A stretch of DNA of 64,000 bases from Psilocybe cubensis (GCA_017499595.2 CM039008.1:372001-436000); one strand, 5' to 3'. Positions 19,626 through 60,682 are shown, numbered from the stretch's first letter. A program made the numbers and translations. Notes: generated from the letters alone by a model not told the origin.

Positions 19626-19656
<31 letters not shown>

Positions 19657-20029
19657 TGCACCCACACCCACACCCACACCCACACCCGCACCCGCACCCA
19701 CATCCACAGCACCAACTCTAGTGATTGGTACTAATGGATTGCTTGATGTTAGTATTCTGGAGCCTGGGCGGCATACCAACAAAAACAAATCTTCCCGACC
19801 CAAACCACGTCCGAGAAAAAAGCCAACCACTCCCGATGAGATTGCACAGGCTGAAGAGTCAAGACGTTTATTGGAAGAGGCGCGGCAGATCGAGGCATCA
19901 TTGCATATACCAGCACATGCAGATAAGCAAGCAGAAAGTTCAGGTGTGCGAAGAAAGCATAGAGAGGTAGATGAGGACCTTATTCTCTCTGGAAAGCGGG
20001 TACGCCGTCAAAGACAAAGAAGCCATTAG
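17635..20029 (+). CDS. Transposon accessory protein, multi-exon, with Pro/Ala repeat and basic C-terminus
   Basis: Chain of ORFs (17635, 17883, 18412, 18953) separated by short GT..AG introns; (PA)n/(HA)n tract; K/R-rich NLS-like segments; divergent from the transposase. Confidence 0.75.
19354..19705 (+). repeat. Coding hexanucleotide repeat (GCACCC)n and variants
   Basis: gcacccgcaccc... encoding PAPAPA, HAHAHA and PTPTPT. Confidence 0.9.
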
Positions 20030-20145
20030 ATATTCTATGTATCTTAGTATCATGTTTTCACAATAAGAAAGTTTGGGCAAGCAGGAAAAATATATTGATA
20101 GAGATACAAAAAAAACCAGCCTGCACAATCAACCACTACACAATT

Positions 20146-23655
<3,510 letters not shown>

Positions 23656-23924
23656 TTGTAACAGCTAAGAGGGGGGAGTGTGGAGTATGTGTTAAATGTG
23701 TTGATTGGGGGGTCAGGGATGTATGTGGAGAGAAGCAAGTTGCACAAGTTGCACGGTACCTCTGAATTGACCCGATACGCTGTAAGTCGAAAGGTCATGT
23801 GATTGTTCCCAGACGTGCACCTATGATTGCCTCCGCAAATGCTTGGCGTGCAAGGGTATATCATGGCATCTCTTGTGATTTTTCGAGGCATCCTATCTTT
23901 TCCTCCCAAAGCCACTGTCGCGTC

Positions 23925-24569
23925 ATGTCCGATTTCAATCCCAAGCCTCAGACTGTTGAATCCAATGTTCCCAGTGGTTATACTGTTATTGAGGGGCCCG
24001 GGGGGAAGAAGTACCTTGTCCCCCTTTTTGTGGTGCCCTCTCTGGAATATTCAATGTCCGCTTATCACAAAAAAGCGGAAATGAAGACTGAAATCGCCAA
24101 TGCTGACGGTCTGGTAAGTAATCAGTTTTAATTGATTTTTATATTGAAAGTATTTACCATCCTAAGGATCCCTATCTTGAACGCTTACAGACCTACAACA
24201 CTATTGCGGGAACGCTGCACGCACCACCCGACCCGGTATGTCATTAAAATCCAAACCGCGCCACTCACACACACTAATGATCACTTCTGGCAGCCGCTTA
24301 CCGACAAGGAGCTTCTCCGACAACATGCTGAGGTCCAAGCACTTGTAGAAAAACTTGGCATCTCATATCGCGACGCTGCTCACCGCCTTTATATGGCCGA
24401 AATGGAGAAGTTGAAGGTCGCCGACATGCAAAGAAAATCATTCCAAATCTTTGAGAAGCGGGCGACTAACACCCTCAAGGGGATTGCAGGGCGCCATAAT
24501 TACAAGAGCAATTATTTTATGATGTACAAGAAAATGAAATCCGAAATATCAAAGCAGAAGGAGCAGTAG
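23925..24569 (+). CDS. Small transposon accessory protein, 3 exons
   Basis: MSDFNPKPQ...ADGL, GTAAGT intron, then ...PLTDKELLRQHAEVQALVEKLGISYRDAAHRLYMAEMEKLK...; divergent from the 20146-23655 gene. Confidence 0.7.
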
Positions 24570-24749
24570 ATACATAGCTAGTGATACATAGTTAGTTTCT
24601 TTAAAACAAATTATCACTGTTCCTTGCCTCAGACATGAGTGTAATGTGAAGTACAATACTCCCTAGTAGGTCAAGTTTGAAATTGTACTTGACTCGTTGA
24701 CATGAACCCTTGACTTCCAGCACCAAGCGGTATGCACATATTCAACTGT

Positions 24750-25050
24750 GCCAAACCCGATCATCAATTGTCGGTATTACTACTTAGAAATTTCCGCAGA
24801 GTACACTAAGACCCGACCTCACTGTATATTCCGACAATCCTACTAGATGTCAGCTAGAAGTCCTATTAATTACTGCTGTTCAATGAATCCACGCTATATG
24901 CTACATTGTAAATTCCCTGTTTTGGATAGTGTATATTCGCTGCTTTAATGAATTCTTTGAATCCGTATAATGCATCACAATGTATAGGTTCATTGTATCG
25001 TATGTTACTGTACAATGTTACAGTGCTATGTGAATTATTATTCATTTGAG
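24750..25050 (-). repeat. Inner part of the right inverted end of the KDZ element
   Basis: Colinear inverted similarity to 10510-10830 (ttcaatgaatc; aatgaattc; cattgtatcgtatgttactgtacaatg; tgtcgg..tact..tttccg). Confidence 0.7.
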
Positions 25051-25104
25051 TACAGTAGTAGGGACATGTTATGCATGTACATTGAAAGCGCATGCAATAT
25101 CGGA

Positions 25105-25285
25105 CTAGTGTGCGTGCACGTTCTCCTTCCCGCCCACAGACCAGTGCGGTGCGCCGAGGATGGGGTGCTGATACCCCTGCTGTGCATGAGAATGCTGCTT
25201 GTGCACCTCCTCCGTGACCAGCGCATCCTCTCCGAGCAACACACTCTCATCCACAGGCTTCATCACATCTGCCTCTGCCTGCGCT
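25105..25285 (-). pseudogene. Probable captured 3' end of an unidentified gene
   Basis: GC-rich, codon-like frame ...AEADVMKPVDESVLLGEDALVTEEVHKQHSHAQQGYQHPILGAPHWSVGGKENVHAH* ending in TAG at 25105-25107; no start codon context. Confidence 0.4.
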
Positions 25286-25320
25286 TTTCAGCCAACGCAG
25301 CTCACATCTCACAGCAAAGC

Positions 25321-26176
25321 TTACCGCGTCGGAAACGCCCCCAGTAGCTTCACACTCCACCCGCACTCGAGGCGGCAGCGGCATTGGCATTGGCAGCAGC
25401 AGTAGCATTAGCGCTTGACCCCGTTCGCCACCTCTCCAGATGATGAAAGTACGTCCCATATTGCGACAGACACTGGCCAATACTCTGTCCGAGACCCGCC
25501 ATGCCCATTACTGCTCCGGGTCCCGCTGCACCTGTTCCAATACCTGCGCCGGCTGCACCTCCACCACTTGTGCTCGCGCTTGTACCTACTCCAGCACCCG
25601 TGCCTACAGCAGCACCAGCGGATGCAGACGCAGACGTAAAGGTAGATGAAGAACCACCAACACCACCCAAACCCAGCGGCACACCCTCGCCCGCCTCCAT
25701 TGCTGCTGCCACTGCCTCACTTTCAGCACCTTCACTGATCATCAACTCCGAGAGCGCGAGCCCATTTGCACGTGCGCCTTGAACACCGTGGTCTACCTCA
25801 TTATCATTGTCGTCATTGTCTGAGGAGTGCGAGTGGTCAGAGAGCCACGCGCCGTTGTTGGGGAGCATGATGACCCCAGATGCATGGTCGTAGCTAAGAC
25901 GGTGGTTGAGCGCGTGCAGGTGTGTATGCGCGTGGTGGGGTGTTGGGTGGGAGTGTGGCCGTTGTTGGCATTGGCCTGATGGTCCAGCGGCGGGAGAGGA
26001 GGTGGATATGGATGCGGCGCCTTGCCATGGATCGAACATCGCGCTTGGGTCCGGAAGGATTCCTCCTGCACCACCATTTCCGTTTGCATTTCCACCAACA
26101 CCTACACTACCAGCCACTCCCGCGCCCTCCTGCAACATCCTTCTCAACCGTCCACTCACACGGCCGCACGTTCCTT
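25321..26176 (-). pseudogene. Captured C-terminal fragment of a basidiomycete hypothetical protein
   Basis: Begins ~10 bp after the HSP60 stop with QGTCGRVSGRLRRMLQEG, then RLSYDHASGVIMLP and YGTYFHH; LLGAFPTR* is reached only by a frameshift; no promoter space or ATG. Confidence 0.55.
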
Positions 26177-26187
26177 GTCAACCCCCT

Positions 26188-27962
26188 CTAAAATTCACCC
26201 ATGCCGCCCATACCACCCATACCCCCAGCACCCGCCTTCTCCTCCTCGGAGAATTGACGACGCACGCCTCGCTCGTGAACAGCAAGCTGGCTACGCCGCT
26301 CGCATCCACCAACGCCGTGCGCACAACTTTCAAGGGGTCAACGATACCCTCGCGCACCATGTCGACGTACTCGCCCTTGGCGGCGTTGTAGCCCCAGGAG
26401 AGCTTGTCTGCGCTGCCGTAGCCCGTTGGGCCTGCAAGGAATGTTGAATAGTTCCAGACGTACATTGTGTACAACACCACTCACCCTGGTTCAAAAGAGC
26501 ACCAACGATAACAGCACTCTTCTCACCGGCATTTATTCAGAATCGCACGCGTAGGCTGCGTAAGCGCACGCCTGATAATACCCACACCCAACTCCTGATC
26601 AAAGTTGGCCGTACGAATAGGCTGGGCATCTCCACTCACAGGGCTGCTCGTGCTCGCAGCCTGCGCACTCGCCGTCGCGAGCTGCAACGACGCCTTGAGG
26701 AGCGCAACACCGCCTCCGGGGAGGATACCCTCCTCGACAGCAGCGCGGGTCGTGTTGAGCGCGTCGTCGTACCTGTCCTTCTTCTCGCCGACCTCGACCT
26801 CGGATGCACCGCCCACCTTGATGACAGCTACACCTCCGCTCAGCTTCGCGAGACGTTCTTGAAGCTTGCTGCGGTCAAAGTCGCCCGTCGTGGGGTCCGC
26901 AATCAAGGCACGGATCTGCTCGCACCGTGCAGCAATCTGATCCTTCGCACCTTCACCGTTGAGAATGATCGTGTCGTCCTTGGTGACAGTGACGCTTCCA
27001 GTCGAACCGAGCATCTCCGCTGACGCACGCTCGAGCTTGACATCGAGCTCGTCCGTGAACACAGTTCCGCCAGTGAGAATGGCAAGGTCACCGAGGATGC
27101 TCTTGCGGTTGTCTCCGAACCCAGGAGCCTTGACAGCGCACACCTGGAGCTGACCACGGAGCTTGTTGAGGATGCAGGCAGCAAGAGCCTCGCCGTCGAC
27201 GTCCTCTGCAATGATGATCAGTGGGCGGCTGGCCTGCGCCGCGGCCTCGAGGGCAGGGAGGATATCCTGTAGGGCGGAAATCTTCTTCTCAGAAAGCAGG
27301 ATAAAGGGCTTCTCGAACTCGACGCGTTGGGACTTGGTGTTGGTGATGAAGTAGGGTGAAATGTAACCACAGTCAAAGCGCATACCCTCCGTGATCTCAA
27401 TCTCGTCCTCAATCATCTTTCCCTCCTTCACAGTGATGACACCCTCCTTTCCGACCTTTTCCATCGCCTGAGCAATCAATCCTCCAACGTGGGCATCACC
27501 GTTCGCAGAGATAGTGGCAACTTGTGCGATTTCGGCGGTTGTTGTGATAGTTTTGGCGTGTGCGGAGAGAAAAGAAACGACGCGGTCGACGGCAGCCTGG
27601 GATCCACGGCGCAGGTCCATGGGGTTGCATCCAGCTGCGACGTTCTTGACATCTTCTGAGTAGATGGCACGCGCAAGAACAGTGGCGGTTGTCGTGCCGT
27701 CTCCAGCAATTTCATTTGTTTTCGAGGCAACATCTTGAATCAGGCTGAGCAAATCTACTTAGCGCTCTGCTCGAAAACAGTGAAAGTGGGAAGACGTACC
27801 GAGCGCCCAGGTTCTCAAACTTGTCTTCACACCGTCTGTCGAAAACCAAACCCTCGTCAGCAAACACTCTCCCAGAACCACGAAACAACGCACCCTTGGT
27901 GATTTTTGGTCCACCGTACGCCTGCTCAATGATCACATTGTGACCCTTTGGTCCAAGTGTCG
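26188..27962 (-). pseudogene. HSP60: 5'-truncated, frameshifted mitochondrial chaperonin HSP60 (GroEL family) copy retaining introns
   Basis: [43 protein letters not shown] and GGMGGM tail; N-terminus missing; deletion after DGV (~27830); extra base at ~26533; missing base at ~26246; three GT..AG introns retained. Confidence 0.9.
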
Positions 27963-28893
27963 CACATCGATGCAACTATCCGAGCTATGTGAAATAGGTG
28001 CCAGCGGTTTTGACGTGGACTCAGAGATGTTTGTCAAACAAGATCAGCAGATGTCGGAGCTTCAAAATCAAATCAAGCGGAGCCTGAACTCACTTGAAGT
28101 CCCATTGCAAGCAAAATCATGTCCACTTTGTTTGCTTTTTTCTAACCACCACCATTCTCTGCCCACGGATATACATGGGGGCAAGGTACGTGTAGTCATC
28201 TTTGTAAATTGATGTCTCCTCCTCGCACTAACATCATACACATCTTCCTTTAACCAAAACAAGTTAGTAGATTATACTTTTTTGGTGAGTAATAGATGAT
28301 TCTCACTCGGTGCTCATCAGTACTCACCACATCCTAGGACCAACTATCTTGAACACTTGGATGAAGGGTCAGTATTTTAGTCTCTATTTAGTGTGCTTTA
28401 CACTACTAACATTACTTGTGAAAGGTCCCGGACAACCAGACATTTGGATACAGACTTGAAAGCATGTACATGTAAGTATATGCGCTTTTTATTGGTTTTT
28501 GATTCATTTTTTGATGCATATATTTTGGTTCTCCATTGCCCGTACCACTTCAGCTGTTCCGAATGCTTGAAGCTGCCTTTTCCCGTGCGTCTTCACCATT
28601 CACACCTTCTTTGTGTCATTGAGTGTAGGAATTGTCAGCTTTAGGTTCTGTTTTGGTGTTGAGGGTCCGGAGCCGTGCACGCTAGCATGCGGGTTCAATG
28701 TGTCTTATATAGTTGCACTATTTTTATGAATAAATAATCTATTTTTCATTATGATTTTTGTGTGCTCCAAAAGGCATTACAATTGCAATACCCAGAAATA
28801 TTGTAAACCTCAAATTAATTTATTCATGCTGCAATATTTCCGTTTTCTTACAACATTTCAAGAGCGTTGTAATGCAGTGCGAGAATTTCGAAG

Positions 28894-42846: not shown

Positions 42847-45207
42847 ATGTCGGGCACGTACACACACCACTTCGATTCACCAACATTCAAGGGGACGTCG
42901 ACTATCCATACGGGGTGTGTGACCTGGGCCATACAAACGAAATTTATACTAACAATTGGTACCATCTGCAGACTATTTATCGGAGGAAAATGGGTTGACC
43001 CAGTCGAAGGTGGTACCATTGAGTGAGTGTGCAAGAATATTGATCTATCTCCCTCTCATCAAGCGCCGGATTACACGTTGACATTTCTGGCGTAGAGTGG
43101 TTAATCCAGGTACGAAACAGCCACTGAACTCGGTGTAAAAGTGATATCTCATCTAGGTTGTATATAGCTACGGCAGCCGTCATCACCGCTGTCGCAGGTG
43201 GAACAAAGGCAGATGTAGATATCGCTGTTGATATTGCTAAGAAGGCGAGTAAGATCATGGAAATTAACAGGGTAGACTGAGTGACAATCTCATCCTTCAG
43301 GCATACAAAACCTCTTGGGGTTTTAGATGCCCCGGAGCGGAAAGGGGAAAGCTCCTTAACAAGCTTGCAGATTTGTTGGAGAAGAACATTGATGAATTCG
43401 CAGCTTTGGAGAGTCTTAACACTGGTGCGTACAGCCATACACTGTGGTATGAATTTGATACAATCTATTATATCACATAGGAAAGGTCTATATGTACTCA
43501 AAGCTATCTGACATTGGGTCCACGATTCGAGTCCTGAGGTATTACGCAGGCTGGGCGGATAAAAATCAGGGCAAGGTTATTGAGGTGAGCCATTACAAAA
43601 CCTTACCAATGACGGACTTTACAAGTCAATTAGACCAAAGAAACCAAGCTCGCATATTCAAGACACGAGCCTTATGGCGTCGTCGTGAGTCTAGTTAATT
43701 TGATATTTCCGCGATCGGGCACAAAGCAGTACTGCATTCCAGGGTCAAATTATTCCTTGGAACTTCCCTATGGTATGTGAACATTAATCCGCTCGCATCG
43801 TCCGACTTCCCAACAACTATTTTAGGCTATGCTCTCGTGGAAAATCGGCCCTGCCCTCGCCACTGGAAATACGATAGTTTTGAAGCCTTCTGAGGTCACG
43901 CCTCTCACTGCTCTTAGACTGTGCGACCTCATAAATGAGGCCGGCTTCCCTCCAGGAGTAGTCAACATTGTGAATGGATATGGTAAGCGATGCATTCACA
44001 CTCAGTCTCCAACGGATGTGAAATGGCAGAAGAACTAATTACTTCATAACTCTCAGGACACACTGTTGGACAGGCAATTAGCGAGCATCCCCTTATTGAA
44101 AAGGTTGCATTCACGGGAAGCACTCTTACTGGGAGGAAAATATTGAAGGCATCGGCTGAAACTAATTTGAAAGTTGTCACATTGGAATTAGGAGGGAAGA
44201 GTCCCACAGTCATCTTCGACGATGCAGACCTTGACTTGGCTATCAAGTGGGCATCCAGTGGCATCTTGTAAGCATTTCCTACACTCGAATTTCCCCCGTG
44301 GAATCCGACGCGTCTAATGGGTTTTACTTTTCACGCAACGCAAATTGATAGCTTCAATATGGGTACGTACCTCTCAAATAGACGGTCGCACAAAGTGAAA
44401 ATTAACGATAAATGCTACGATAGGGCAATCTTGTACAGCTGGTTCCAGAATTCTAGTACAGGAAGGCATATATGATAAGTTCATAGAAAGCTTTAAGGAT
44501 GTTGCGAAAAAGCTTTCAGAGGGAACAGGAGACCCTTTCACTCCAGGGACTCTTCATGGTCCACAAGTCTCCAAAGTTCAATTTGATGTGAGATAGATCT
44601 CTGCACCATATCATCCACACCTAAATATCCTCGACCTAGCGCGTTATGAATTACATTGAATCCGGAAAACAAGAAGGCGCCAATGTCATTATTGGAGGAG
44701 AGCGGCACGGCGATCAAGGCTACTTCATCAAACCAACCCTCTTCACAGAAACCACTCCTCAGATGAAAATTGTTCGAGAAGAGATCTTCGGACCGGTTGC
44801 GGTAATAATTAAATTCAAAACCGAAGAGGAGGCTATCGAGATTGCCAACGACACTGTCTATGGTCTAGGCTGCCATGTTTTCAGCCAAAATATCAGTCGC
44901 GCCATTAGGGTAGCTCATGCTCTCGAGGCAGGTAGCGCTTGGGTATGTTCAACTCACTGAACAAGTCCAAGTCATATGTCTGACGCAATTGTACAGGTAA
45001 ACTGCGCGCAAGACACGGAGGTTTGCGTGCCGTTCGGGGGATACAAACAATCTGGCATTGGTAGAGAACTAGGAGAATATGCTCTTGAAACGTACGTCAT
45101 TTGTATAGTGTGCATGTTTTGTGATTAATGTTATTCTAATTCATTTGTATTGGCGTCATTCTAGATATACTCAAGTTAAAGGGGTGCACATCAATATCGG
45201 AAATTAG
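42847..45207 (+). CDS. Aldehyde dehydrogenase (ALDH1/2-like), many introns
   Basis: [80 protein letters not shown]. Confidence 0.93.
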
Positions 45208-46073: not shown

Positions 46074-47242
46074 ATGAATTCCCTTCATAGCTCAGATATT
46101 CTAACATCCGATGTAGTGTTTTTAACGGATATACCGTTTCCGCAATTAGGAACACCGTCTGCTAACTTGGCTCTTTTTGTGGTTGGTTTGCTAGGGGTAT
46201 GCAAGCCATCTTTGCGTATCAAGCCAATTGATGTTCATCTAGACGACTCCTTAAGGCTCTTGTGTGGGATATCGTCAGCAACATCAATGCCGACTACCAC
46301 ATCGTACACGATTATCCTATAGCAGTGGCTACATTTGTTTACATTTTATCCAGGTGATTGAAGAATAGCTTATGGGTCAAGCCTACAGCTTACATCGGCA
46401 CCAATTCAAAAGGATTTCGACTCTTGTGACCTTTATCCTTTTTGCAATTGTTAACAGTACGTACTCCCCAATTTAAAGCAATTCCGACATGACACCACTC
46501 CATTCTGCCGTTATCAGCTCAGCACAGCCCCGATTGTCATCAGATGCTATACATTGTGTCATGGATGGCGGCTGTGTCGATTTCTTCCACGGCTTTGTTA
46601 TTTTTTTTGCGGGTTCGGGCAGTATACCCTAATAGAAAATACGTGGTCACGTTCTACTTTTTTCTATGGCTGGCTGTCGTTGCGGGATGTATATTCGAAA
46701 CTCAAAATGGGGGAAAGAAAATTCAAAAAATCCAAGCACCCGGCACATATTGCGTTGAAGGGGCGGATTTGAATTTTATCTCATTAGTAACTTCTATGAC
46801 CACGATCCCTATGGTCAATGACACTTTGGTTTTCGCCGCAATGACATACAGGTTGATGCAAAACGCGCACGTCAAGTTTAACCTTAGCAATGGGTTTAGG
46901 GTTATGATCTTAGGGCATTACCTTCCTGCTTTCTCTCGAGCGTTGCTAAAGGACGGTCAGGTCTATTTCCTGTAAGATTCTGTGACATTGCTCAGAATTT
47001 GGAGCTAACTCTGATTGTTATATGTATACAGGAGTACTGTTACACTGTCCATTGTTTCTACCATTATCTTCTATGCATCATTGCCCATCTCTTCCTCAGT
47101 TAGAGCATCATTTGTATATCCGAATATTGCGTTCATGAACATGATGGGATGTAGACTCTTTCGACACACAAAGCTTCGACTTTATAAACTCTCAGATCCC
47201 TCTCCGGATCGAGAGGCCTCCCAGCCCATGGAATTTGCATAG
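46074..47242 (+). CDS. Multi-pass membrane protein of an expanded Agaricomycete family (putative 7TM)
   Basis: Hydrophobic helices; 'ALVWDIVSN', 'LLFFLRVRAVY', 'VNDTLVFAAMTYRL', 'LPAFSRALLKDGQVYFL', 'NIAFMNMMGCRLFRHTK'. Confidence 0.75.
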
Positions 47243-47805: not shown

Positions 47806-49416
47806 TTATTTTTTCATGTTGTTTGTCCTTGCCAACACCTCCAAAAAATCCCGAGTCGCCGCCTCGATAGCCCGGTTCTTCATGTCTTCATTCCTGGCTT
47901 CCCAATCTGCTGAAGTCCTAACTACTTTCCAGGACGTTTTCTCCAAAGAAATCCACCACTCGCTCTCGAATGGATGACCAGGCGATCCCACATATCCCCA
48001 GGGCTTTGCTGTCGGAGGTTGTACGTACGGATTCAGAATTTCAATCAGCGTGGGGTGGACAGGTCCGGTGAAATGAACAATGTGCGGATCTTCTTTCATT
48101 GGATTAAGGTCAAGTGCATTCCGATCATCCGATGGATATTGCGCATAGGTCCCTAATCCCTGGGCATTCCATTTCAGATCCAAAGAAAGCCAGTCGTTTT
48201 GAAAATGCAAATTCAGAGCATCCTGGTCAAGGTGTTTAGCGTTTTTCATTGACTTTGCAAGTTGTGTCAAAGCAGTAGAATTTTGTCGTGCGCGCGATAA
48301 ATCGACGAGAATGACTCCCGCATTAAAGTACGGCCGTCTTTTGTCTTTATCGTGACCCATAGGATACCCCACGTCAGGGGCGGCAGCTATCGTCTTTCCT
48401 TTCAGGTCTGTATTCCAGAGGGCGCGGACACTTTCGCGCACAAGGATGTCAGCGTCTAGGTAGAGCACGCGTTCGACGGGAAGGATGCCCAACATGTCAA
48501 TCTTCGCCCATACCGGCCCCATTGCCTTTGCAAGACCATCGTCAGGTAGCTCCAAAAATTGCAACGTTACTCTATCCCCCTGAGCTGAAATGATGTCCAG
48601 GAACCTGTCCTTATCTGTCCTAACCAGTCCGCAATCAATAACGAACAGTGTAATCCGTCCTGGGGTCCTCTCAACAACACTGAGAATTGATACAGCAGCG
48701 CCTATGGCATATCCAGAGTTGACGGCGAGCGCTATATTGATTTCGTACTCCATCACTTCGTCTACTGGATGATTGCCTTCCAGTAGGAAACCCAATCGCA
48801 TTTCGGCCACTTTTCGGACAACAACTTGATAATGCTCGTCATCTGTCAGACGTTCATACTCTCCATGGTGAAGGGCCAAAAATGCATCAATTCCCCTCTT
48901 AGGGTGATGAATACTCCCCTCAGGTTCCTTGTTCCAGTGATAATCGTCGAAGATGATAATCGCGTCTTTCCTCGCTAGGCGCCACGCCAACTCCCCATCA
49001 AGCATGGTGTCGTCCGCTCGGTGCGATCCATCTATGTAAATCCAGTCAAAACCAGGGTTTTTGGATCCTAACTCTTCCGATAAGAGGCTCATAAGACCTG
49101 GAATGCTGAATTGGGGGAGGATCCGATGTCTTTTTCCTGTCACCTCGAGGTTATGTTTGATTTTTGCGTATCGCTGCTGGCCAGCGGAGGTTCGGAGAAG
49201 GTCAAAGTGATCAATGCATACGATTTCTCCTCCACTTTTGCAGACATTATTGAGGAGAAACACTGCCGATCTTCCCTCCCAAGAACCAACTTCGAGGACA
49301 CGGGGCTTGTCGGAGCGTATTAAGGGAAACAGATCGGTCCAGCTCTGTATGTTGTGTGAGAACCAATCCTGGGTTGGCGTGAATTGGTATACGGTGGTGT
49401 TGGGAATCAAAGACAT
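47806..49416 (-). CDS. Intronless fusion of a class I SAM methyltransferase (Methyltransf_24-like) and a glycosyltransferase family 8 domain
   Basis: VLEVGSWEGRS, CIDHFD, FDWIYIDGSH, IFDDYHW; GT8 motifs RVLYLDADILV, YFNAGVILVDL, DQDALN, WNAQ, IVHFTGP..KPW; likely start is MSLIPN at 49416. Confidence 0.88.
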   Translation of the reverse strand: MSLIPNTTVYQFTPTQDWFSHNIQSWTDLFPLIRSDKPRVLEVGSWEGRSAVFLLNNVCKSGGEIVCIDHFDLLRTSAGQQRYAKIKHNLEVTGKRHRILPQFSIPGLMSLLSEELGSKNPGFDWIYIDGSHRADDTMLDGELAWRLARKDAIIIFDDYHWNKEPEGSIHHPKRGIDAFLALHHGEYERLTDDEHYQVVVRKVAEMRLGFLLEGNHPVDEVMEYEINIALAVNSGYAIGAAVSILSVVERTPGRITLFVIDCGLVRTDKDRFLDIISAQGDRVTLQFLELPDDGLAKAMGPVWAKIDMLGILPVERVLYLDADILVRESVRALWNTDLKGKTIAAAPDVGYPMGHDKDKRRPYFNAGVILVDLSRARQNSTALTQLAKSMKNAKHLDQDALNLHFQNDWLSLDLKWNAQGLGTYAQYPSDDRNALDLNPMKEDPHIVHFTGPVHPTLIEILNPYVQPPTAKPWGYVGSPGHPFESEWWISLEKTSWKVVRTSADWEARNEDMKNRAIEAATRDFLEVLARTNNMKK

Positions 49417-50326
49417 GAGATAGACGAGACTGGAACAGATCTTGGCTGGTAGGTCAACTATTCGACTGTTGTTTTTATAGGATATTCTCACTTTGAATTT
49501 GGTAACCTGATCGTTCCATTCCCACATTCCCTTATTCGCAACCATGATGAACGTGCTTCCCTTTCAGCTCATTCTCTCATTCTAAGGCCGTCATATCGTC
49601 TCGATAAGCCCTGGAAACGGGAAGAAGCCTGCTTTAGGATATATTTCCTGCCCACATACTCGTTATTCAGATTAAGATTCAAAAATCATACTGGAAGTCA
49701 GAGCCTCGATGTAGCCGGAGGTGCGCTTATCGACGAACTCTCTCTCTGACAAGTCCGTAAGTTGTCTTTGCATATCCTTTGTGGGACCGTTATCTCACAC
49801 GGTAAACGTCAAATGTAGCCATGGACTTCTAGACTGAAGTTCAATAAGAGCGATGAACCGCGGTGAACAAGAGATTCTGCCTTTCTGTGGGTAGATATAC
49901 ACCTCTTTGACACCTTTGTCTCTTTATCTCCGCAATTCCAGGCGCTAAAGTTACCTTGCATCCGTAATGGTCTGCTGGAATGGAAAACAATTTTCTGAAT
50001 CCCCTTTGACGCCCAGAAGTGGATGGATAGATACGCGGCTATAAGTCATTATCCACGGAATGCTACGTAAGTTTGCCAATATGTTGCTCATACCGTACTG
50101 GACATGCAAGAGCTTTCTGCTAACAATGTAATGCTAAGGTGCCAGGAATCGTCTTTAGAGTTGTACAGGAATACTGTGGGGTTGTCGAATGCCTTCATAT
50201 GGTTCAGCTGTACTTATTGACCAATTTAATTGTCATTATCTCGCTACTCGCAAATGCTGTGAACAGGTCCAGCCCACGTATATAACAAGGGTTCTTCCAT
50301 CGACTCGCCCACTCAACATACCAGTC

Positions 50327-53300
50327 ATGGATAATCTCCTCCCCCAACCACAAGCTTCAAAAAGGCGCTACTTGATCACAGGTGGCCATGGATTTATAGT
50401 GGGTACTTTGTTTATTGAGGTTCGAGCCAACTGTACTGAAATATTTCCTAGGGATCCCACATTGCACGTCGCATGTTCGCTGCCGGCGAGGTTACGGTTC
50501 GAATCGTGGACATAGCACCTACGTCAGCGATAGAAGGTCCAATTTGCCACGAGTTTCTCAAGGGCAATCTGCTCGATATGTCCTTTTGCGAACAAGCTCT
50601 AGAGGGGGTCGACGTCGTTATCCACCTCGCTGCCAACATGGGTGGCATGGGAACAATCCACGATGACAATGATTTCCTTATCTATCAGGAGAACCATATG
50701 ATGACGATAAACATACTTCAAGCCTCTTTAGACGCCGGTGTCAAACAGCTATTATATGCATCATCGGCCTGTGTGTATCCCCAGGATTTGCAGAGTGACC
50801 AAACTGGAGACGTTTCTCTGCGCGAAACCGCAGTATGGACTCAATGTTCCCCACCTTCGCCTCAAGGTCTATATGGGCTCGAGAAGTTACACTCCGAAAA
50901 TATCATGCTGCTGGAACAGTTTGCAACTAAAATGGACATTCGAATTGCCCGGTTTCACAATATTTTTGGTCCCGGCGGTTCCTGGAAGGATGGCAGGGAG
51001 AAAGCGCCAGCTGCCATGCTTCGAAAAGCTCTGGCATTGAAGCGCGTTGGATTATCTGCCAATACCACGTTCGAGGTATGGGGAGATGGATATCAACGCC
51101 GAAGCTTTCTGTATGTTCTTGATGCTGTCGATGGAATCATGGCACTTCTGCAATCTAGGCACAATCCTGGCCCTATCAACATTGGTTCGGACAGATCCGT
51201 TACCATCCAGGACCTGGCAAATATGGCCCTCGAATGTGTCGGATTAGACCCCAAACAGGTCTCCTTTTCATATCATCTTGACAAGCCCGTTGGTGTCATA
51301 TCGAGAAATTCGAACAACGAGAGGGTAAAGGAAGTCCTTGATTGGGAACCTAAAATCAAACTATTGGAAGGCATGCAAAAGACTTGCGAATGGATGACAC
51401 GCCAGCTTAATCAATTAGAAGCGGGATCCGGTATTGACGAAAAATTTTTGGTCAGTAAAGTGATTCATCTTCGACCCCAGAAAATCACATTCGCCATTCT
51501 ACTTCCTATAACATCTCGAGGCACTGCAAATGCGATGGATTGCCTCTTGAACTTGAGGCGATTTGCAAAGTCCCTTGTTAATACAACCTGGAGGGATACT
51601 CGAGACACCTATGAGGGAGTCACGTTTCGCTTTGCTGTATATCTCGCAATCGATGCAGATGACGAGTTTCTTCTTCCTCATGGTCGCCATGAAGGCAAGG
51701 CTCAAGCCGTTTTACGCGACGAAGGCGTATTCAACATCACCTCTATCTACTGCGACCTCCCCCGAGGCCACGTATGTGCGCTTTGGAGAAAATGTGCCAA
51801 GAAGGCCTGGGTAGATGGGTGTGACTACTTGGTCCTTATGGGAGACGACATCATTCTTCATGATGAGGGATGGATGAGAAAAGCCTATACAGAGTTCTCT
51901 GATTTGGCGAATGAGCTTTTGGTGCCATACGGATTTGGTTGTGTTGCTTTCACTGATATATCATTTCCTGGTATGCCTACTTTTCCAATCGTTCATAGAA
52001 CCCACATGGACATCTTCGGCGAAGTGGTACCGGAAATCTTTGTCAATCAAGATGGTGACCCATTTCTGTTCCAGCTATACAGACGGTGGAACTCGTCCAG
52101 AATGTTCACATCAAGGATTTCCAATGGTGTTGGAGGTGAAAATGATGCTCGATACTCCAAGGCGCACGCTCAGAAATGGAAGTTCGGCCCTCTTGATCAG
52201 GCGGTTTCCGTTGCTCATAACTGGCTTCATGATCAAGCATGCAATCCCAATAGGATGGTGACCATTGATGTCGTTATTCCATGCTATAGGGTTGACATCT
52301 CAATCCTTGACCGGATTCTGTCCCTCAAGCCAACTACCACCGCTTGCGTTATGTTCATTATTATCATCGACGACCCGCTTTCCCCCAATATTTCTCAACT
52401 TGAATCAAAGTATTCAAGCCGTCCCGACGTACGCATTAGAGTTAACCGGAAGAACTTAGGGGCATCTGCCTCACGAAACAGGGGAATGGAAGAGTCGGCA
52501 GCTGATTGGATTCACTTCCTGGACGATGATGTGGTCCCTAGGCAAGACCTTCTGGAGCAGGCTGAGAAAGCAATTCGTTCTGAGCCCAGAGCCATTGGTT
52601 TTGTTGGGAAATCTATGTTCCCAGTAGCCGATACTGTATTCACTGCTGCTGTACATCTCGCCGGCGTGACTTATTTCTGGGGTATAGCAGGAGACAGCAA
52701 CCTGACTGACGATGTCCCTTGGGGTGTTACTGCCAATCTCATCACGCGACGCGTTGATGACTCCATTAATTTTGATTTGAAGTATCCTAAAACTGGGGGA
52801 GGGGAAGATATAGATTTCTGCCGTCTGAAGAGGCAATCTTCTCTTTCTAACAAAGGAAAGGGATTTATTGCAGCTCCGGATGTCCAGGTAATCCATCCGT
52901 GGTGGAATCACGGAACAAGGTCATATTGGCGCTTCTACCACTGGTCCGTAGGTGACGGTGGTCTTATTCAAGGCTTTCCAGAAAATGTTTACATCGACTA
53001 TGCACCAAACAGTGCTGAAATGCTGTTGTTCTGCGTTTGTGGATGTGCCGCCTCCTCGGTCTTGCTTCAGTTTAACTTGATGATTTCTTTTTGCGAGTTG
53101 TTCCTCTGCGTCATCCTCGCGAACACTCTGGATGACTATTATAGACATATGTGGAAACACCCGGAACGGACCGCATCTTTGGACATTAGCATCCGCAGGG
53201 GATCATTGCTATGGAGGCTTTCAGTTATTGAAAGCACGTTTATACGGATGTTTAGTGAAATAGGGCGCCTGCGGGGGTTGTTTTTGCGTGGGGAATACAC

Positions 53301-53427
53301 TCTTGTGATGAAACGGTTTGATTGGTTCGCTGGTCGACTCAACGATGCCCCAATTATGGAGGAAAGAATCAACAGTGTACGACGTGCAGTCCTTAGCATC
53401 TTCTTTTTCTTGTTGTTTCTGTATTAG
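50327..53427 (+). CDS. Fusion of a GDP-mannose 3,5-epimerase-like extended SDR, two GT-A (GT2-like) domains and C-terminal TM helices; one intron
   Basis: LITGGHGFI/GSH split by an intron (~50399-50450); LAANMGGMG, YASSACVYP, YGLEKL, RFHNIFGP, GREKAPAA, WGDG..RSF; GT-A 1 'ILLPITSRG...VLMGDDI'; GT-A 2 'VVIPCYR...GASASRNRG...FLDDDV...GGEDIDF'. Confidence 0.88.
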
Positions 53428-53919
53428 ATGTTGATGTACCTCGCCCAATAACATGAGCACAGGGATCTTGCACATTGCATTTTCATATCAACTTTTCAAG
53501 GTGAAGCCTCAGTCGCTTTGCGAATCAGTTTCAACATGAAGATTTGACACTTTTTATACAGATAATAGTCCGACGTTTCATTACCATCCCTTGACAACGT
53601 TCTCTTGGACCTGTGTCCCAAACAACCGCCCTTGCCAGTACATCAACTTTGAAGTACACACTCGCGGGGAAATTGGTATGTCTGGTTGATCGCCAGTTGG
53701 TTAGTCAAGGTTAGTTACAACAAACTGGTTGACTTGTAATGTTACAAGTTGTGCTATCGTCCATATGGTATAAAACATGAACTGATGGAGTCTGAGTCAT
53801 GACATTGAATTAAGTAGTACGTAAGTTTTTTCTATCTTTGCATCCGTATACTAGCCGGCTTCCCATAAGAAATGTATAAGTACTTTTCAGACCTACGTTA
53901 AGTTCGCGTCCTCTTCGCA

Positions 53920-55137
53920 ATGAGTAACCACAAATCTGCAGAGTTATACAACTCCGAAGTGGGTCCAATGCTAGGATCCCAGGCAGCAACTCTTGCGTTC
54001 GTCGCAGTGGGGTCATTGTCCGTACGTCCTGGTCACCGTCCTGGTCGCCCTTCGCAAGGGGAACATAATTGAATTACTGATTTTAGGCTATTATTTGGGA
54101 TATTCTGAGTAATATAGCACTCGACTTCTACATTCTTTGTAACTTTTCAGTCTCGACGACGATAGTCGTCTACTTTGTGTCCAGGTGAGTTTGCAAATTG
54201 AGCCTCATGGTTTTGTAGGAAAAATAGCACTGAATCTGTGTTACTTCAAGATTTGCGTCACTAGTCGCCTTTGTATTGGTCTCTATTCTCAGTAGTATGT
54301 CCTTGTCTATCCTATTTGGCGATAGGTGAATCGCCTGACTAGTTATGTATCATTTAATTTGGCAGCACAATCTATGGAGAATTGTTCGAGGATGACCGAG
54401 GTTCTTTCCTGGATGATGGCCGCCTCCCTCTCATCGACGACATTGCTTTTCTTCCTAAGGCTCCGGGGAATATACGCCGATAAACCGTACGTTATCGCAT
54501 TTTTCTTCATGTCGTGGATAGCAATCGTCGTGGGATGCATAGTCGGAACGCGGTCTAAATCGGAGATGAGGGGTGAAAATGGAGGTTTTGTTAACCATGG
54601 GTACTGTATATCAGGCCCAATCGACCTTTTCCCGCTCATAACCGCTATGTCTACAATCCCTATGATCAACGACACCCTAACGTTTGCTGCAATTACCTGG
54701 CGTCTTGTGCGAATGTCGGAACACGACAACTCCGACCTCAGGAAAAGTTTGAGCACTCTTGTACTTGGACGCTACTTACCCGCCCTCTCAAGAGCTCTTC
54801 TCAAAGACGGCCAAGTATATTTTTTGTGAGTAGTCCAACAGTATAGAATTCCAATGAGAAATTCACGAAATTCAACAGGAGTACGGTAACGCTTTCCTTT
54901 CTTTCTACGACGCTATACTACGTCGAAGGATCCCCTCATACCTTTAGCGCGGGTCTTGTTTTCCCAAACATTGCACTCATGAATCTCATGGGATGCAGAA
55001 TATTTAGAAACACCAAAATCGGACTGCGCGCTTTAGTGGACAACTCTGAAGACACCAACTATGTTTCGCAGCCAATAGCCTTCCGTTCAAATACAGTCAA
55101 CACGGTGTCATCACCCACCAGAGTCTCCGAAGCTTGA
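53920..55137 (+). CDS. Multi-pass membrane protein, paralog of 46074-47242
   Basis: Same exon layout; 'AIIWDILSN', 'LLFFLRLRGIY', 'INDTLTFAAITWRL', 'LPALSRALLKDGQVYFL', 'NIALMNLMGCRIFRNTK'. Confidence 0.78.
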
Positions 55138-55375: not shown

Positions 55376-57485
55376 CTATGAGAGACGGTAACCGAGATTG
55401 ACATGCACAGCCTTGACGTTGGTGTAGCTAAAGAAAATGGTAAGTGCACTGGTTCAAGCAGTATCACGAGAAGTGGGGTGATGCATACTTGGTGAGGGCA
55501 TACTCTCCTAACTCGCGCCCAATACCGGATTGTTTGTATCCTCCGAACGGTACTTGAGGGTGCAGTTGGTTCGCACAGTTGATCTACACCACGGTATAAG
55601 GAGGTCATTATACATGAAATAATGCAATACATACCCATGCAGTTCCAGCTTGCAGCTTGTGCGCTGTCTCGATGGCGCGGTTGATATTTTGAGTGAAGAC
55701 AGCGGAGGCAAGTCCATAGACAGTATCGTTGGCTTGACGAATGACATCTGTTTTCGAGAACAATATGAATAAACAGAGCAATATCACGTATTTTTATGCT
55801 CACCTTCTTCATCCTCAAACTTGATTATAACTCCGACGGGTCCAAAGATCTCCTCCTGCACAATTTTCATGTCTGGCTTGGTATCGGTGAAGATAGTTGG
55901 GTTGATGAAGTAGCCTTCTGTTCCGTGTCTGTCACCTCCTAGGTGGACAGTCGCACCTTGCTCTTTTCCAGAGTTGATGTACCCCATGATACGCTGCCAA
56001 TAAAGGCGTAAGCAGGAGAAACAAATTGGTTTCAACTGAACGTACATCATATTGGATCTCGGAGACTTGAGGACCTTGGTTAATACCGACGCCGAAAGGA
56101 TCGCCAACTTTAATGGCCTTGGCTCGCTCGGTGAATCCTTTCAAGAAGGCATCGTAGATACCAGCTTGTACGAAGATGCGGGATCCTGCACAGCATGCCT
56201 GACCATGATTCCAGCTGATGCTAATTCAGTAATCCATCGTTGATAAGCAGAAGGGTGAAAAAACGCACAAGATGCCGTGGACAGACCAGTTGATGGCCTG
56301 CTCAAGATCCGCATCGTCGAAGATGATGTTTGGACTTTTACCTCCCAATTCGAGAGTGACGGTCTTCAAATTAGATTTGGCAGCCGCTTCCATGATCTTT
56401 CGGCCAACAAGAGTACTTCCAGTGAAGGCAACCTTGTCGATCTTCATGTGAGAAGAAATAGCGGCACCAACAGTGTTACCATATCCGTTGACGATGTTGA
56501 CAACACCATCGGGGATTCCAACCTCCTTGATAAGTTCGCACATTCGCAAGGCGGTGAGGGGAGTGAACTCAGACGGTTTGAGAACGATGGTGTTTCCAGT
56601 AGCCAGAGCAGGGGCGATCTTCCAAGAGAGCATCAACACTGTTGATACTTTTAGTACGAAAATTAAATAGGTATTTCTGCAGCTTACAAGGGAAGTTCCC
56701 TATGTGAGAGAGCGATCATAAGTAAAAAATTCTACTGGTGTAGGTCTAGGGATAAGACTCACAAGGAATAATCTGGCCAACGACGCCAATAGGCTCATGC
56801 CGGGTGTAGCTCAATTTACGCTCGTCGGTCTAATGGATTATTAGAGTATATCGAAGTGCAGTGTCGTAATTGCACACCTCAATTGTTTGCCCTTGGATTT
56901 TGTCTGCCCAACCAGCGAAATATTTGAACACGTTGATAGCGAATGCGACATCAGTACCCAACGCCCAGTCATATGTCTTTCCTATAAAAATAAGAGAATG
57001 AAGTTACATCCAACCATACAGATTTAGGACTTAGACTGACCATTATCAAGGGCCTCGATGGCAGCCAGCTCCTCTTTGACGCCCTCCATTGCTTGCGCGA
57101 GTTTCCATAACAACTCCGATCTCTTCATACCAGAAGCTTTCAGACCCCAGACGGTATCGAAAGCCTTCTGTGCGACTTCAACTGCGGTGTCGACATCTTT
57201 CTCGGTGCCCTCAGCGATCTTGGTGATGACCTGACCGGTGGCTGCGACATACGTGGGTCAGAGGCAAGAAAGCGTGAGAAATAAGTGGTTGGGTTTACCG
57301 GGGTTGACGACGCTGATAAGATACAGATTAGATGACGAAAATCGGATAAAATGTTTAAAAACATACTCAATAGTTCCTCCACTGGAGCCGTCAACGAACT
57401 TGCCGCCGATGAACAGACCAGTACTGAACGAGGTCTTTCCTTTGTATTTAGGGGTATCCCATTGGTATGTGAATGTAGTAGACAT
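55376..57485 (-). CDS. Aldehyde dehydrogenase (paralog of 42847-45207)
   Basis: [12 protein letters not shown]...[84 protein letters not shown]. Confidence 0.93.
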
Positions 57486-59105: not shown

Positions 59106-59771
59106 TTACATTCCCAGACGGGTATCTAATTCCCCAATGTCCTCATTCCAGTCCTGTGGGGTGTTGAGATATCGGAAATAGAGTCAACCCCCTGTGTAAT
59201 ACGAAAACATACCTGTGGTTTCTCGATAATGAACTTTTCCATTAAATCCTTACAATCCTGTCTGTCTTTGACGATAACCTCAACTCCGTTTTCAATCAGT
59301 AATGATTCGCCTCCCATAAATGTCTTGTTCTCCCCAATCACGACTCGCGGTATCTTGAAAAGAAGTATTGCTCCTGTGCACATACTGCAAGGACTAGAAA
59401 CGATTCAAGTTTCCGGAAAGCGACAAGAAGAGCGATGGTCACCTCAGGGTAGTATACTTTACATCCGTTAAAATGGTTGCTTAAAGGTTAAATGTTGTTG
59501 AAGAGCTCACAATGGTTGCCGCTCTATACACCTCTGCTCGCAGTCTCCCAGCATTCTCCACAGCTGATATCTCTCCATGCAATGTTGCAGACGATTTTTG
59601 TACTCGTTCGTTATGGCCCGACCCAAGCACCCTGTATCCTGCTGCTTCTGAAGCATCAGGTACTAGGATAGATGACCCAATCGGAATCCCCCCTTCTTCG
59701 TAGCTTTTCTGGGCTTCTTCCAGAGCAATTTGCATTCCATGCGCATCTATCTTTTCCCACTGTGACGGCAT
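59106..59771 (-). CDS. FCY1: Cytosine deaminase (zinc-dependent CDA fold)
   Basis: EGGIPIG, GHNERVQ, ATLHGEISAVENAG (HxE), SPCSMCTGAI (PCxxC), VVIGEN, WNEDIGE. Confidence 0.9.
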
Positions 59772-60682
59772 GGTCAACCTACAGAACTTAACATAGACCC
59801 TTTATCCGTCATAATATAGCCCTCACTCACCTCTCGAAAGGGTGCGAACCTTTTTTTCTAATCTGATCGTGCGTCGAGTGTTTTGAATACACCTGCCGAA
59901 GACCCGTTAATTTTGGAGCGGAGACTAATATAATAAATCAGCCGCTCAGCCGAGGCTGGCGGAACTTCAAGAATTGAAGAGATATAAGCGGACTTCAAAA
60001 TGGAATATCATGTGACAATTAAATCAATCTCCTGTTGTCAACGTTCAACCACAACGTCGACTCTCGTCGACTGTGGTCTGCAGTTTAAACTCTTTCTTGT
60101 TTCATAATATCTACCTCTGAAGCCATCGTATGCTGCAGTATTGGAGCGCTATCGATAATATATGTCAAGTTGTACAGCAAATTACCATCGCACACTAGAC
60201 AATATCAAGTACAGTAGATAGCTGTTCTCCGCCGAAACACTTGCTGAAGTTGCTGCGCGGCTGGCTGGTTTCGCCAGAGGGCTATCCAGGAGCTATCAAT
60301 ATTGCGAGCTTTGGACGCTTTCAAAACCTGTATATTATACCATAGCTTCCTCGATTATTTGATGCTGGTGAGCACTCAACAAATGGCGCTCACTGTGTTG
60401 ATATTGCTCATCTGTCAATCTTTGAATCACAAGATAAATATAAACGGCCACCACTGTATCCAGCAACGAAACAGGCTTTTGACATAACCGCGCGCATGCG
60501 CCAAATTCGGACAGACGAAAAGGCCCTTCCCGACGACGAATTTACTGCATTCAATGATTTAAATAACGCCTACACCGTACAGCTGTGATTTGCCCCCAGT
60601 TCGTTCTTTTCTCTTTCTTTTTCGTTCTTTTGTTCTCCTTCTTTGACCCTGGCTGGTCCCTTACTTTCATTTATTTTTTGAT

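Follow-up and report, generated by a model that had tools for sequence, protein, structure and literature searches.

A divergent gene pair of Psilocybe cubensis encoding a methyltransferase-GT8 fusion and a GDP-mannose 3,5-epimerase-like membrane protein with two glycosyltransferase domains

Introduction

GDP-L-galactose and GDP-L-gulose are sugar donors reported mostly from plants, algae and a small number of prokaryotes, and the biosynthetic genes of mushroom heteroglycans, polymers widely studied as bioactive polysaccharides, are largely unknown. The subject of this study is a pair of genes, here called A and B, at positions 47806..53427 of a 64,000 nt stretch of the Psilocybe cubensis genome (CM039008.1:372001-436000), the whole of which is referred to as the window. 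Gene A encodes a fusion of a methyltransferase and a family 8 glycosyltransferase (GT8), and gene B encodes in one polypeptide a predicted short-chain dehydrogenase/reductase (SDR) domain resembling GDP-mannose 3,5-epimerase (GME), two glycosyltransferase (GT) domains, and a C-terminal membrane module.

The GME of plants (Arabidopsis, PDB 2c59, 2c54 and 2c5a) is a free-standing, soluble enzyme of ca. 377 amino acids, feeding ascorbate and wall synthesis. The SDR domain of gene B shares its NAD-binding, Cys, Tyr-x3-Lys and Lys motifs (E-value 8e-65), but it is the N-terminus of a 1015 amino-acid, membrane-anchored protein with two GT domains, in a host not known to use L-galactose. The chlorovirus PBCV-1 protein A064R is reportedly a three-domain rhamnosyltransferase-rhamnosyltransferase-methyltransferase, which would resemble A and B as a cytosolic multi-domain protein with no signal peptide, combining GTs for L-sugar donors with an O-methyltransferase outside the endoplasmic reticulum and Golgi; unlike A and B, it has no GT8, epimerase or membrane module, and no sequence relation to it was established, a scan of IMG/VR giving only weak methyltransferase-domain matches. 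The bacterial ABC-transporter-dependent O-antigen systems (WbdA/WbbM and WbdD) are said to assemble glycans on a lipid carrier at the cytoplasmic face by multi-domain GTs, including GT8, with terminal methylation, which is the kind of assembly proposed below for A and B. Some bacterial relatives of the gene A methyltransferase are fused to or adjoin GT2 genes, and WbbM is a weak PDB match of gene A (E-value 6e-4). A and B differ from the O-antigen systems in being eukaryotic and in having no transporter, flippase or carrier-priming enzyme at the locus, and it is conjecture that methylation terminates the glycan here. Finally, membrane GTs of the GtrB/ArnC/dolichol-phosphate mannose synthase (DPMS) type, together with PcManGT, resemble gene B in that interface and transmembrane helices follow the GT-A domain, and are among its structural neighbours; gene B differs from them by a DPMS match of E-value 0.27, Z-scores tied with soluble GT2 enzymes, and HPWW, GGGEDIDF and RFDWF motifs of its own.

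Full-text literature searches, with subscription journals outside their scope, returned no characterisation of the A or B protein family, and no GDP-L-galactose metabolism in Agaricomycetes. A 2011 survey tabulates two fungal GME-like sequences, without comment in the accessible part of that source (PMC3220709). Names in the sequence databases are automatic, i.e. “glycosyltransferase family 2 protein”, “NAD-dependent epimerase/dehydratase” and “General stress protein A”. Each of the domains is of a known enzyme class, and it is the combination, an epimerase-two GTs-membrane module protein coupled to a methyltransferase-GT8 protein, which is new to the literature searched.

Results and Discussion

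Gene models and layout of the divergent pair

The pair consists of the following features, in coordinates of the window.

47806..49416, minus strand: gene A coding sequence, 536 amino acids plus stop, intronless; methyltransferase-GT8 fusion (P0001), by open reading frame (ORF), translation and Pfam
48052..48738, minus strand: GT8 domain (retaining-type GT-A), P0001 residues ca. 227-455; Pfam PF01501, 107.1 bits against a cut-off of 24.3
48940..49296, minus strand: Methyltransf_24 domain (class I, S-adenosylmethionine-dependent), P0001 residues ca. 41-159; Pfam PF13578, 63.2 bits against a cut-off of 26.3
49417..50326, no strand: divergent intergenic region, 910 bp between the start codons, head to head; contains both 5′ leaders
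50067..50138, plus strand: 5′-leader intron of gene B, 72 nt, GT..AG; X1 and X2 contigs join 50066 to 50139
50327..53427, plus strand: gene B coding sequence, 1015 amino acids, one 53-nt coding intron
50327..50398, plus strand: gene B exon 1, 24 codons (MDNLL...GGHGFI), ATG at 50327
50399..50451, plus strand: gene B coding intron, 53 nt, GT..AG, the sole intron within the coding sequence
50452..51444, plus strand, continuing from exon 1: GME-like extended SDR domain, exon-2 residues 1-331, to residue ca. 355 of the protein
51478..52233, plus strand: middle GT-A-fold, GT-like domain of no named family, exon-2 residues ca. 343-594; acidic AIDADD and LMGDD motifs invariant
52258..52995, plus strand: GT2 domain (inverting GT-A), exon-2 residues ca. 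603-848; Pfam PF00535, 55.7 bits against a cut-off of 23.3
53011..53427, plus strand: C-terminal membrane module, last ca. 140 residues, with hydrophobic helical hairpin, amphipathic helix, RFDWF, hydrophobic C-terminal helix and stop
53499..53559, plus strand: 3′ untranslated intron of gene B, 61 nt, GT..AG, just past the stop codon; X1 and X2 contigs join 53498 to 53560

Two head-to-head fusion genes ca. 0.9 kb apart had been recognised in the first-pass annotation of the window, and this arrangement was confirmed. In stop-to-stop ORFs (translation table 1) the genes appear as frames of 585 codons on the minus strand (47806..49563) and 991 codons on the plus strand (50452..53427). The start of gene A is most likely the ATG at 49416 rather than one of the upstream Met codons, because alignment with homologues begins there and because a 1-nt deletion at 49532 in contigs of runs X1 and X2 breaks the frame upstream. 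In gene B, the NAD-binding motif GGHGFIG straddles the exon junction and is restored when the two exons are joined. The best database match of gene B is a deposited P. cubensis record, “GDP-mannose 3,5-epimerase 2”, with 100% identity; it is 936 amino acids long and covers 82% of the query. This deposited model (P0002) is probably mis-spliced or truncated, and the 1015 amino-acid model agrees with the length of the orthologues. The 910 bp between the genes presumably serve as a shared promoter region.

Contigs of public sequencing runs, which we guess to be of RNA (X1, X2), cover both genes and include spliced forms; bridging of contigs was used, and not their depth. One X1 contig follows the window to position 50399, and its next 15 letters are those of 50453-50467, as expected from the predicted splice of the gene B coding intron. 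The X1 and X2 joins thus give gene B one coding intron and one intron in each of the untranslated parts. The sole X3 contig runs unspliced across the whole stretch. In the leader of gene A, the X1 and X2 contigs omit 57 nt (49449-49505) with non-canonical ends on either strand (TT..AC on the strand of the gene), in addition to the single base at 49532, in the upstream part of the frame; these differences may represent strain indels or unusual splicing. The intron counts of zero and one, initially noted for A and B, hold for the coding parts only. One X2 contig joins 48542 to 48598, skipping window positions 48546-48600 on the plus strand with GT..AG ends, i.e. antisense to gene A. The skip of 55 nt, which would put gene A out of frame, suggests a spliced antisense transcript over the gene.

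An epimerase domain closest to GDP-mannose 3,5-epimerases

The N-terminal domain of gene B is an extended SDR according to its NAD-binding motif and Pfam (Epimerase, 117.6 bits against a cut-off of 20.9). Among solved structures searched by phmmer in PDB, Arabidopsis GME 2c59 was the best match with E-value 8.4e-65 over residues 2-331, and the solved GME chains ranged from 8e-65 to 6e-64, the best other family being at 1e-21. GDP-fucose synthase matched at 4e-21, UDP-glucuronate decarboxylase (UXS) at 1e-18, the best UDP-glucose 4-epimerase chain at 7e-13, and Escherichia coli GalE at ca. 4e-7. The motifs MGGMG (within HLAANMGGMG), SSACVYP, YGLEK and GREKAPAA are all contained in the domain and are invariant across 31 aligned sequences, three of them having been pointed out already in the first-pass annotation. 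The Cys, Tyr-x3-Lys and Lys motifs align with those of 2c59, and we take their catalytic roles to be those of the GME literature. The domain is thus nearest to the characterised GMEs in sequence and carries their catalytic motifs. By the grouping test set beforehand, the SDR domain groups with GDP-mannose 3,5-epimerases, as had been claimed, which makes it a predicted enzyme of this class.

Two GT-A domains and a conserved membrane module in gene B

The middle domain of gene B returned no Pfam match at E-value ≤10, none in NCBIfam, and no PDB sequence match at E-value ≤10. The AlphaFold2 (AF2) model of the domain has a predicted local distance difference test (pLDDT) value of 89, with Foldseek matches to TarP, TarS, RmlT and WrtF at E-value 2e-7. 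By VIA, the GDP-fucose-using fucosyltransferase WrtF aligned with Z 15.7 and a root-mean-square deviation (rmsd) of 2.5 Å over 176 residues, tied with GalNAc-T and PcManGT. The domain is in this model a GT-A fold of no named family, no GT2 sequence model matching it.

The following domain is a GT2 member by Pfam, with DDD at residue 691 and GGGEDIDF, with its ED at 785. Therefore, of the “GT2-GT2” architecture originally proposed, the second domain stands and the first is replaced by the family-less GT-A fold. The AF2 model of the GT2 domain has a pLDDT of 92 and aligns by VIA with WrtF (Z 18.8, rmsd 3.8 over 218 residues); WrtF, K4CP, PcManGT, HAS and TarP are tied at Z about 18. Membrane GT2 enzymes which act on lipid-phosphate or membrane-bound acceptors (PcManGT, GtrB, ArnC, HAS) are among the structural neighbours.

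The hydropathy profile of gene B contains a hydrophobic hairpin at exon-2 residues ca. 855-895 and a hydrophobic C-terminal tail, and the model of the GT2-membrane part has helices at residues 258-274, 278-306, 323-349 and 370-394. No N-terminal hydrophobic segment or signal peptide was found in the profile, and the SDR lies N-terminal to the hairpin. The motifs HPWW, GGGEDIDF and RFD(W/Y)F and the C-terminal helices are common to bacterial, archaeal and eukaryotic homologues. The conservation of the membrane module (RFDWF, HPWW), from Bacteroidota and archaea to eukaryotes, exceeds, judged from the alignments, the needs of a simple anchor. A processive membrane GT2 synthase of the cellulose, chitin or hyaluronan type was considered and is unlikely, as the [QR]xxRW motif is absent throughout gene B and the module has a hairpin and one C-terminal helix only; HAS and BcsA are among the tied structural neighbours, with rmsd >5 Å. 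Comparison with the polyprenyl-phosphate GTs gave a similar architecture, but a sequence match to DPMS of E-value 0.27 only and Z-scores tied with those of soluble GT2 enzymes.

Methyltransferase and GT8 domains of gene A

Gene A belongs to the Methyltransf_24 and GT8 families by Pfam gathering scores. The methyltransferase domain has the motifs EVGSWEG and DGSH, and its closest prokaryote-like relatives are 32–40% identical. In the GT8 domain, the DAD motif (residue 321) and HFTG...KPW (residues 448-473) are invariant in 29 aligned homologues. The best PDB match of GT8 is LgtC, an alpha-1,4-galactosyltransferase (E-value 1.5e-9), and the sole NCBIfam match of gene A is lipopolysaccharide 3-alpha-galactosyltransferase (3e-13, far below cut-off), in agreement with the resemblance to bacterial lipopolysaccharide transferases initially noted. 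Neither an N-terminal hydrophobic segment or signal peptide nor a membrane segment was found in the hydropathy profile of gene A. Taken with the profile of gene B, this bears out the earlier reading of two proteins without signal peptides, with membrane helices at the C-terminus of B.

Linkage of A and B in Agaricomycetes

Protein searches returned 418 relatives of gene B and 617 of gene A, 120 of each being listed. The organism names among these listed relatives were all of Agaricomycetes, as assigned by recognition of genera, and ranged from Tulasnella to Agaricales, Boletales, Polyporales and Russulales with identities of 51–69%; no ascomycete name was among the listed part of the matches. 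Consecutive locus tags for A and B were found in Stygiomarasmius, Paramarasmius, Hohenbuehelia, Bondarzewia and Tulasnella.

When metagenomes were scanned with the alignment of gene A, 80 loci were obtained, 56 of them carrying a fungal-type gene A. Gene B was directly upstream of A in 40 of the 56, in divergent orientation in 26 and in tandem (B then A, on the same strand) in 14. Of the remaining 16 loci, 13 were too short upstream and three had at least 3 kb upstream but no B. Adjacency was consequently observed in 28 of the 31 informative loci, i.e. those with ≥3 kb upstream of A. The gap between the tblastn matches was 424–1510 nt where the genes are divergent (26 loci). Since adjacency survives the inversion to tandem order, the linkage of A and B appears to be under selection. 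The open frames also stay nearly intron-free in relatives, with single tblastn pieces in 23 of the 26 near-full matches to B and in 38 of the 41 to A. A shared promoter motif was sought and dropped: the best 8-mers were shared by 8 of the 23 distinct intergenic regions, compared with at most 5 after shuffling, a weak signal confounded by relatedness. In one locus with a methyltransferase-GT8 gene and no neighbouring B (L002:9451-10434), a nucleotide-sugar transporter gene lies ca. 4 kb downstream.

Fusions of the same domains in other eukaryotes

With the GT-A, GT2 and membrane part of gene B as query, 1.84 billion cluster representatives were searched without a profile. This gave 371 proteins at E-value ≤1e-30, and Pfam scans covered 27 of these (20 in the first set). 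The two-GT module occurs alone, in proteins of ca. 640–710 amino acids, or behind a GME-like SDR, and further orders of domains were found as follows: GT8-SDR-GT-GT2 (P0339), His_Phos-MT24-GT-GT2-GT8 (P0336, P0350), GT-GT2-GT8 (P0319, P0327), and MT24-GT8-SDR, cut by the contig end (P0408). In five of the 20 proteins scanned in the first set (P0287, P0292, P0302, P0306, P0313), a sulfotransferase was fused before or after the two-GT module. These forms carry no methyltransferase domain, which suggests that the fused modifier domains decorate the product. A histidine-phosphatase domain was present in P0336, P0350 and P0399, the last also with a ubiquitin-like domain. The sources of the sulfotransferase and phosphatase fusions are eukaryote-like.

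Every domain of A and B is thus fused to others somewhere, which by the Rosetta-stone argument indicates that the domains act together; as far as sequence comparison can tell, fusions in such varied orders support a single shared pathway. Together with the adjacency in metagenome loci and in the five named genera, these fusions uphold the functional linkage of the two genes, which was implicit in the first-pass annotation.

The fused SDR domains are not uniform. Exact GME motifs were found in Monosiga and in three other proteins, and they are missing from several other fused relatives, so that the sugar may differ between lineages. For the divergent SDR of P0339, GME is still the best match (4e-31 versus 2e-20).

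Distribution and origin of the cassette

Outside Agaricomycetes, the SDR-GT-GT2 fusion was identified in Acaulospora colombiana (Glomeromycotina), the chytrids Chytriomyces hyalinus and C. confervae, the choanoflagellates Salpingoeca infusionum and Monosiga brevicollis, and the amoebozoan Mayorella sp., with a related GT8-SDR-GT2 form in the cryptophyte Rhodomonas salina. A quick maximum-likelihood tree of the two-GT module was made from 30 chosen sequences, with no prokaryote outgroup and with midpoint rooting. In this tree, the 10 Agaricomycete sequences formed one clade (Shimodaira-Hasegawa-like approximate likelihood ratio test, SH-aLRT, 98), sister to Acaulospora and one further protein (SH-aLRT 99), and this group fell inside a clade of 21 sequences with those of chytrids and choanoflagellates (98); Rhodomonas clustered with the GT8-fused forms. 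The tree broadly matches organismal relationships.

From a scan of prokaryotes with one genome for each of 185,579 species, 80 loci were kept. All but one of these (79/80) match the C-terminal GT2-membrane part only, with 23–42% identity, and they include Chitinophaga, Flavihumibacter, Poseidoniales, Methanolobus and Nitrosopumilaceae. The single locus with both GT domains (L081; 43% identity, residues 14-525) is a 3.4-kb contig of a Verrucomicrobia metagenome-assembled genome (MAG), and is probably a eukaryotic contig contaminating that MAG. Scanning IMG/VR gave weak matches to the methyltransferase domain only (≤44% identity over short segments), the best with 35% identity over the domain, and one GT8-only match at 29%. 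In Methanolobus and in a Poseidonia MAG (L087:4101-8436 and L084:4038-7865), the GT2-membrane homologue lies beside a UXS-like SDR, itself fused or adjacent to a radical-SAM protein, with a Methyltransf_24 protein or a GT32-like transferase on the other flank. This archaeal gene set was rejected as an orthologous cluster and is an analogy only, its SDR being UXS-like and not GME-like, and its methyltransferase barely similar.

A recent horizontal acquisition of the cassette from bacteria would explain the long, nearly intron-free frames, which are retained in relatives and which, on a loose comparison in which the flanking aldehyde-dehydrogenase gene is broken into several short frames, are unlike those of the neighbouring genes, and bacterial relatives do exist individually for GT8, the methyltransferase and the C-terminal GT2. 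Clusters combining MT24 and GT8 in the Atlas, from Chloroflexota and giant viruses (Nucleocytoviricota), provide a lead only. Against this, prokaryotes contribute just the GT2-membrane part apart from the probable contaminant, the viral matches are weak and short, and the fusions extend to Glomeromycotina, chytrids, choanoflagellates, an amoebozoan and a cryptophyte, with the Agaricomycetes as one well-supported clade next to Acaulospora. Also the GC content of the A/B region (0.44–0.47) resembles the remainder of the window. Such an acquisition is hence highly improbable. In terms of sequence distribution, recent bacterial transfer is not supported, and the pattern fits an old eukaryotic module with many losses. 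The horizontal origin initially suggested as possible was not upheld, and neither was a patchy distribution, as the pair is found throughout Agaricomycetes and the SDR-GT-GT2 fusion in further eukaryotes.

Proposed pathway and alternative explanations

We lean, with somewhat more confidence than doubt, towards the reading that A and B together form one cytosol-facing, membrane-tethered assembly line, which would make GDP-L-galactose or GDP-L-gulose in place and yield a methylated heteroglycan, likely on a lipid acceptor. The first step would be epimerisation of cytosolic GDP-D-mannose to GDP-L-galactose and/or GDP-L-gulose by the SDR domain of B, beside the fused transferases. The two GT-A domains of B, inverting by family and fold, would then add sugars, at least one of them the L-hexose, to an acceptor which the conserved C-terminal helices keep at the membrane. 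This acceptor is probably a lipid or polyprenyl-phosphate-linked glycan, a weakly indicated choice for which two observations speak: bacteria and fungi alike keep the membrane module, and the structural neighbours include membrane GT2 enzymes acting on lipid-phosphate or membrane-bound acceptors. The GT8 of A would add an alpha-linked D-hexose (galactose or glucose) from a UDP-sugar with retention, its methyltransferase would O-methylate the product, possibly as a cap, and other proteins would flip or export it.

As for the end product, an alpha-hexosyltransferase joined to an O-methyltransferase makes the gene A fusion an obvious, though conjectural, candidate for O-methylated galactan. The product could by conjecture be a mushroom heteroglycan of the 3-O-methylated alpha-galactan type, or else a glycolipid. 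According to the accessible part of one account, fruiting bodies of Agaricomycetes contain heteroglycans with an alpha-1,6-D-galactan backbone, 3-O-methyl-galactose, and branches of mannose and fucose (PMC8829048).

Several points weigh against the proposed assembly line. The galactan link accounts for neither the L-hexose nor the export route. We know of no route by which mushroom heterogalactans would be exported from a cytosolic pathway. Nor do we know of a fungal glycan reported to contain L-galactose or L-gulose, and the literature searches described above found none. The mushroom heterogalactans described in the same account, as far as accessible, hold D-galactose, mannose and L-fucose (PMC8829048). 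For both GT domains, many GT-A enzymes tie as structural matches, which are thereby uninformative on donor and acceptor, and sequence similarity to dolichol-phosphate mannose synthase falls short of significance. No NCBIfam equivalog matches the SDR, the best model being GDP-L-fucose synthase at 5e-29, far below cut-off, and several other fused SDRs are only 27–30% identical. An A-like gene stands without B at three of the 31 informative loci, one with the full methyltransferase-GT8 gene (L002), one with the methyltransferase only (L048) and one partial (L055), and many of the metagenome loci are near-duplicates, by which the locus counts overstate independence.

The same enzymes could instead make a soluble cytosolic product, such as a polymethylated oligosaccharide, a glycoside or compatible-solute derivative, or a glycosylated cytosolic protein, with the helices serving as a mere tether. 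All the catalytic domains are predicted to be cytosolic, and the histidine-phosphatase of the relatives P0336, P0350 and P0399 could dephosphorylate a small phosphorylated acceptor, for which the priming of mycobacterial methylglucose lipopolysaccharide is a precedent; cytosolic multi-domain GT and methyltransferase enzymes are also known from chloroviruses and from Skp1 glycosylation. This explanation is unlikely, since the P. cubensis proteins are without a phosphatase domain in Pfam, and a module with RFDWF and an amphipathic helix, kept across domains of life, is hard to square with a mere tether. Somewhat different in kind, and rather improbable in our estimation, is an SDR which is not a functional GME but acts on another nucleotide sugar or performs a partial reaction, so that no L-galactose or L-gulose would arise. 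The assignment does derive from sequence comparison, and the lack of an NCBIfam equivalog, the divergent module-fused SDRs in other lineages and the lack of an L-galactose-containing fungal glycan in the literature searched all point this way; opposed to them are the E-value of GME, lower by ca. 43 orders of magnitude than that of any other SDR family with a solved structure, the complete and invariant set of motifs, and the GME affinity of even the divergent SDR of P0339. A third explanation is that A and B share a bidirectional promoter yet serve separate pathways. Compact fungal genomes have many divergent gene pairs, and the three loci without B beside A would agree with independence, but adjacency kept from Tulasnella to Agaricales and through inversion to tandem order, together with fusion of the A and B domains within single proteins elsewhere, makes this very unlikely.

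Neighbouring genes

The pair is flanked on both sides by copies of the same neighbours, with aldehyde-dehydrogenase exons at 44640-44957 (plus strand) and 55787-56699 (minus strand), and paralogous membrane-protein genes at 46493-46972 and 54326-54826 (both plus strand), which are 47% identical over 159 amino acids and without a Pfam family. Exons resembling cytidine/deoxycytidylate deaminase were found at 59129-59801 on the minus strand (Pfam dCMP_cyt_deam_1, 2.5e-8). No sugar-related gene was found among these flanks in the window, nor a gene for a transporter, flippase or carrier-priming enzyme. A wider cluster beyond A and B was rejected, the neighbours not being sugar-related and aldehyde dehydrogenase adjoining the pair in just two of the 80 metagenome loci (L010, L017). 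Elsewhere in the window, the region 18001-28000 has a GC content of up to 0.49–0.57 and strong GC and AT skews, unlike the remaining sequence.

Implications for fungal glycobiology

Should the epimerase prove active, GDP-L-galactose or GDP-L-gulose would be among the sugar donors of fungi, and some fungal glycoconjugate would hold an L-hexose. A broader proposal, which we put forward only tentatively and regard as doubtful, is that of an ancient eukaryotic assembly line at the cytosolic face, retained in Agaricomycetes, Glomeromycotina, chytrids, choanoflagellates and some amoebae and algae, and yielding an overlooked L-hexose glycoconjugate, which the GT8 and methyltransferase partner would finish. 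The pair could then be machinery for O-methylated heterogalactans or for a new class of glycolipids. Were this true, L-hexoses of fungi would have been missed because absolute configuration is seldom determined. The same set of domains in varied fusion orders across eukaryotic supergroups offers unusually clean guilt-by-association for a GT-A domain without a family, and for the mushroom heteroglycans the A/B pair is a concrete, knock-out-ready candidate for their biosynthesis.

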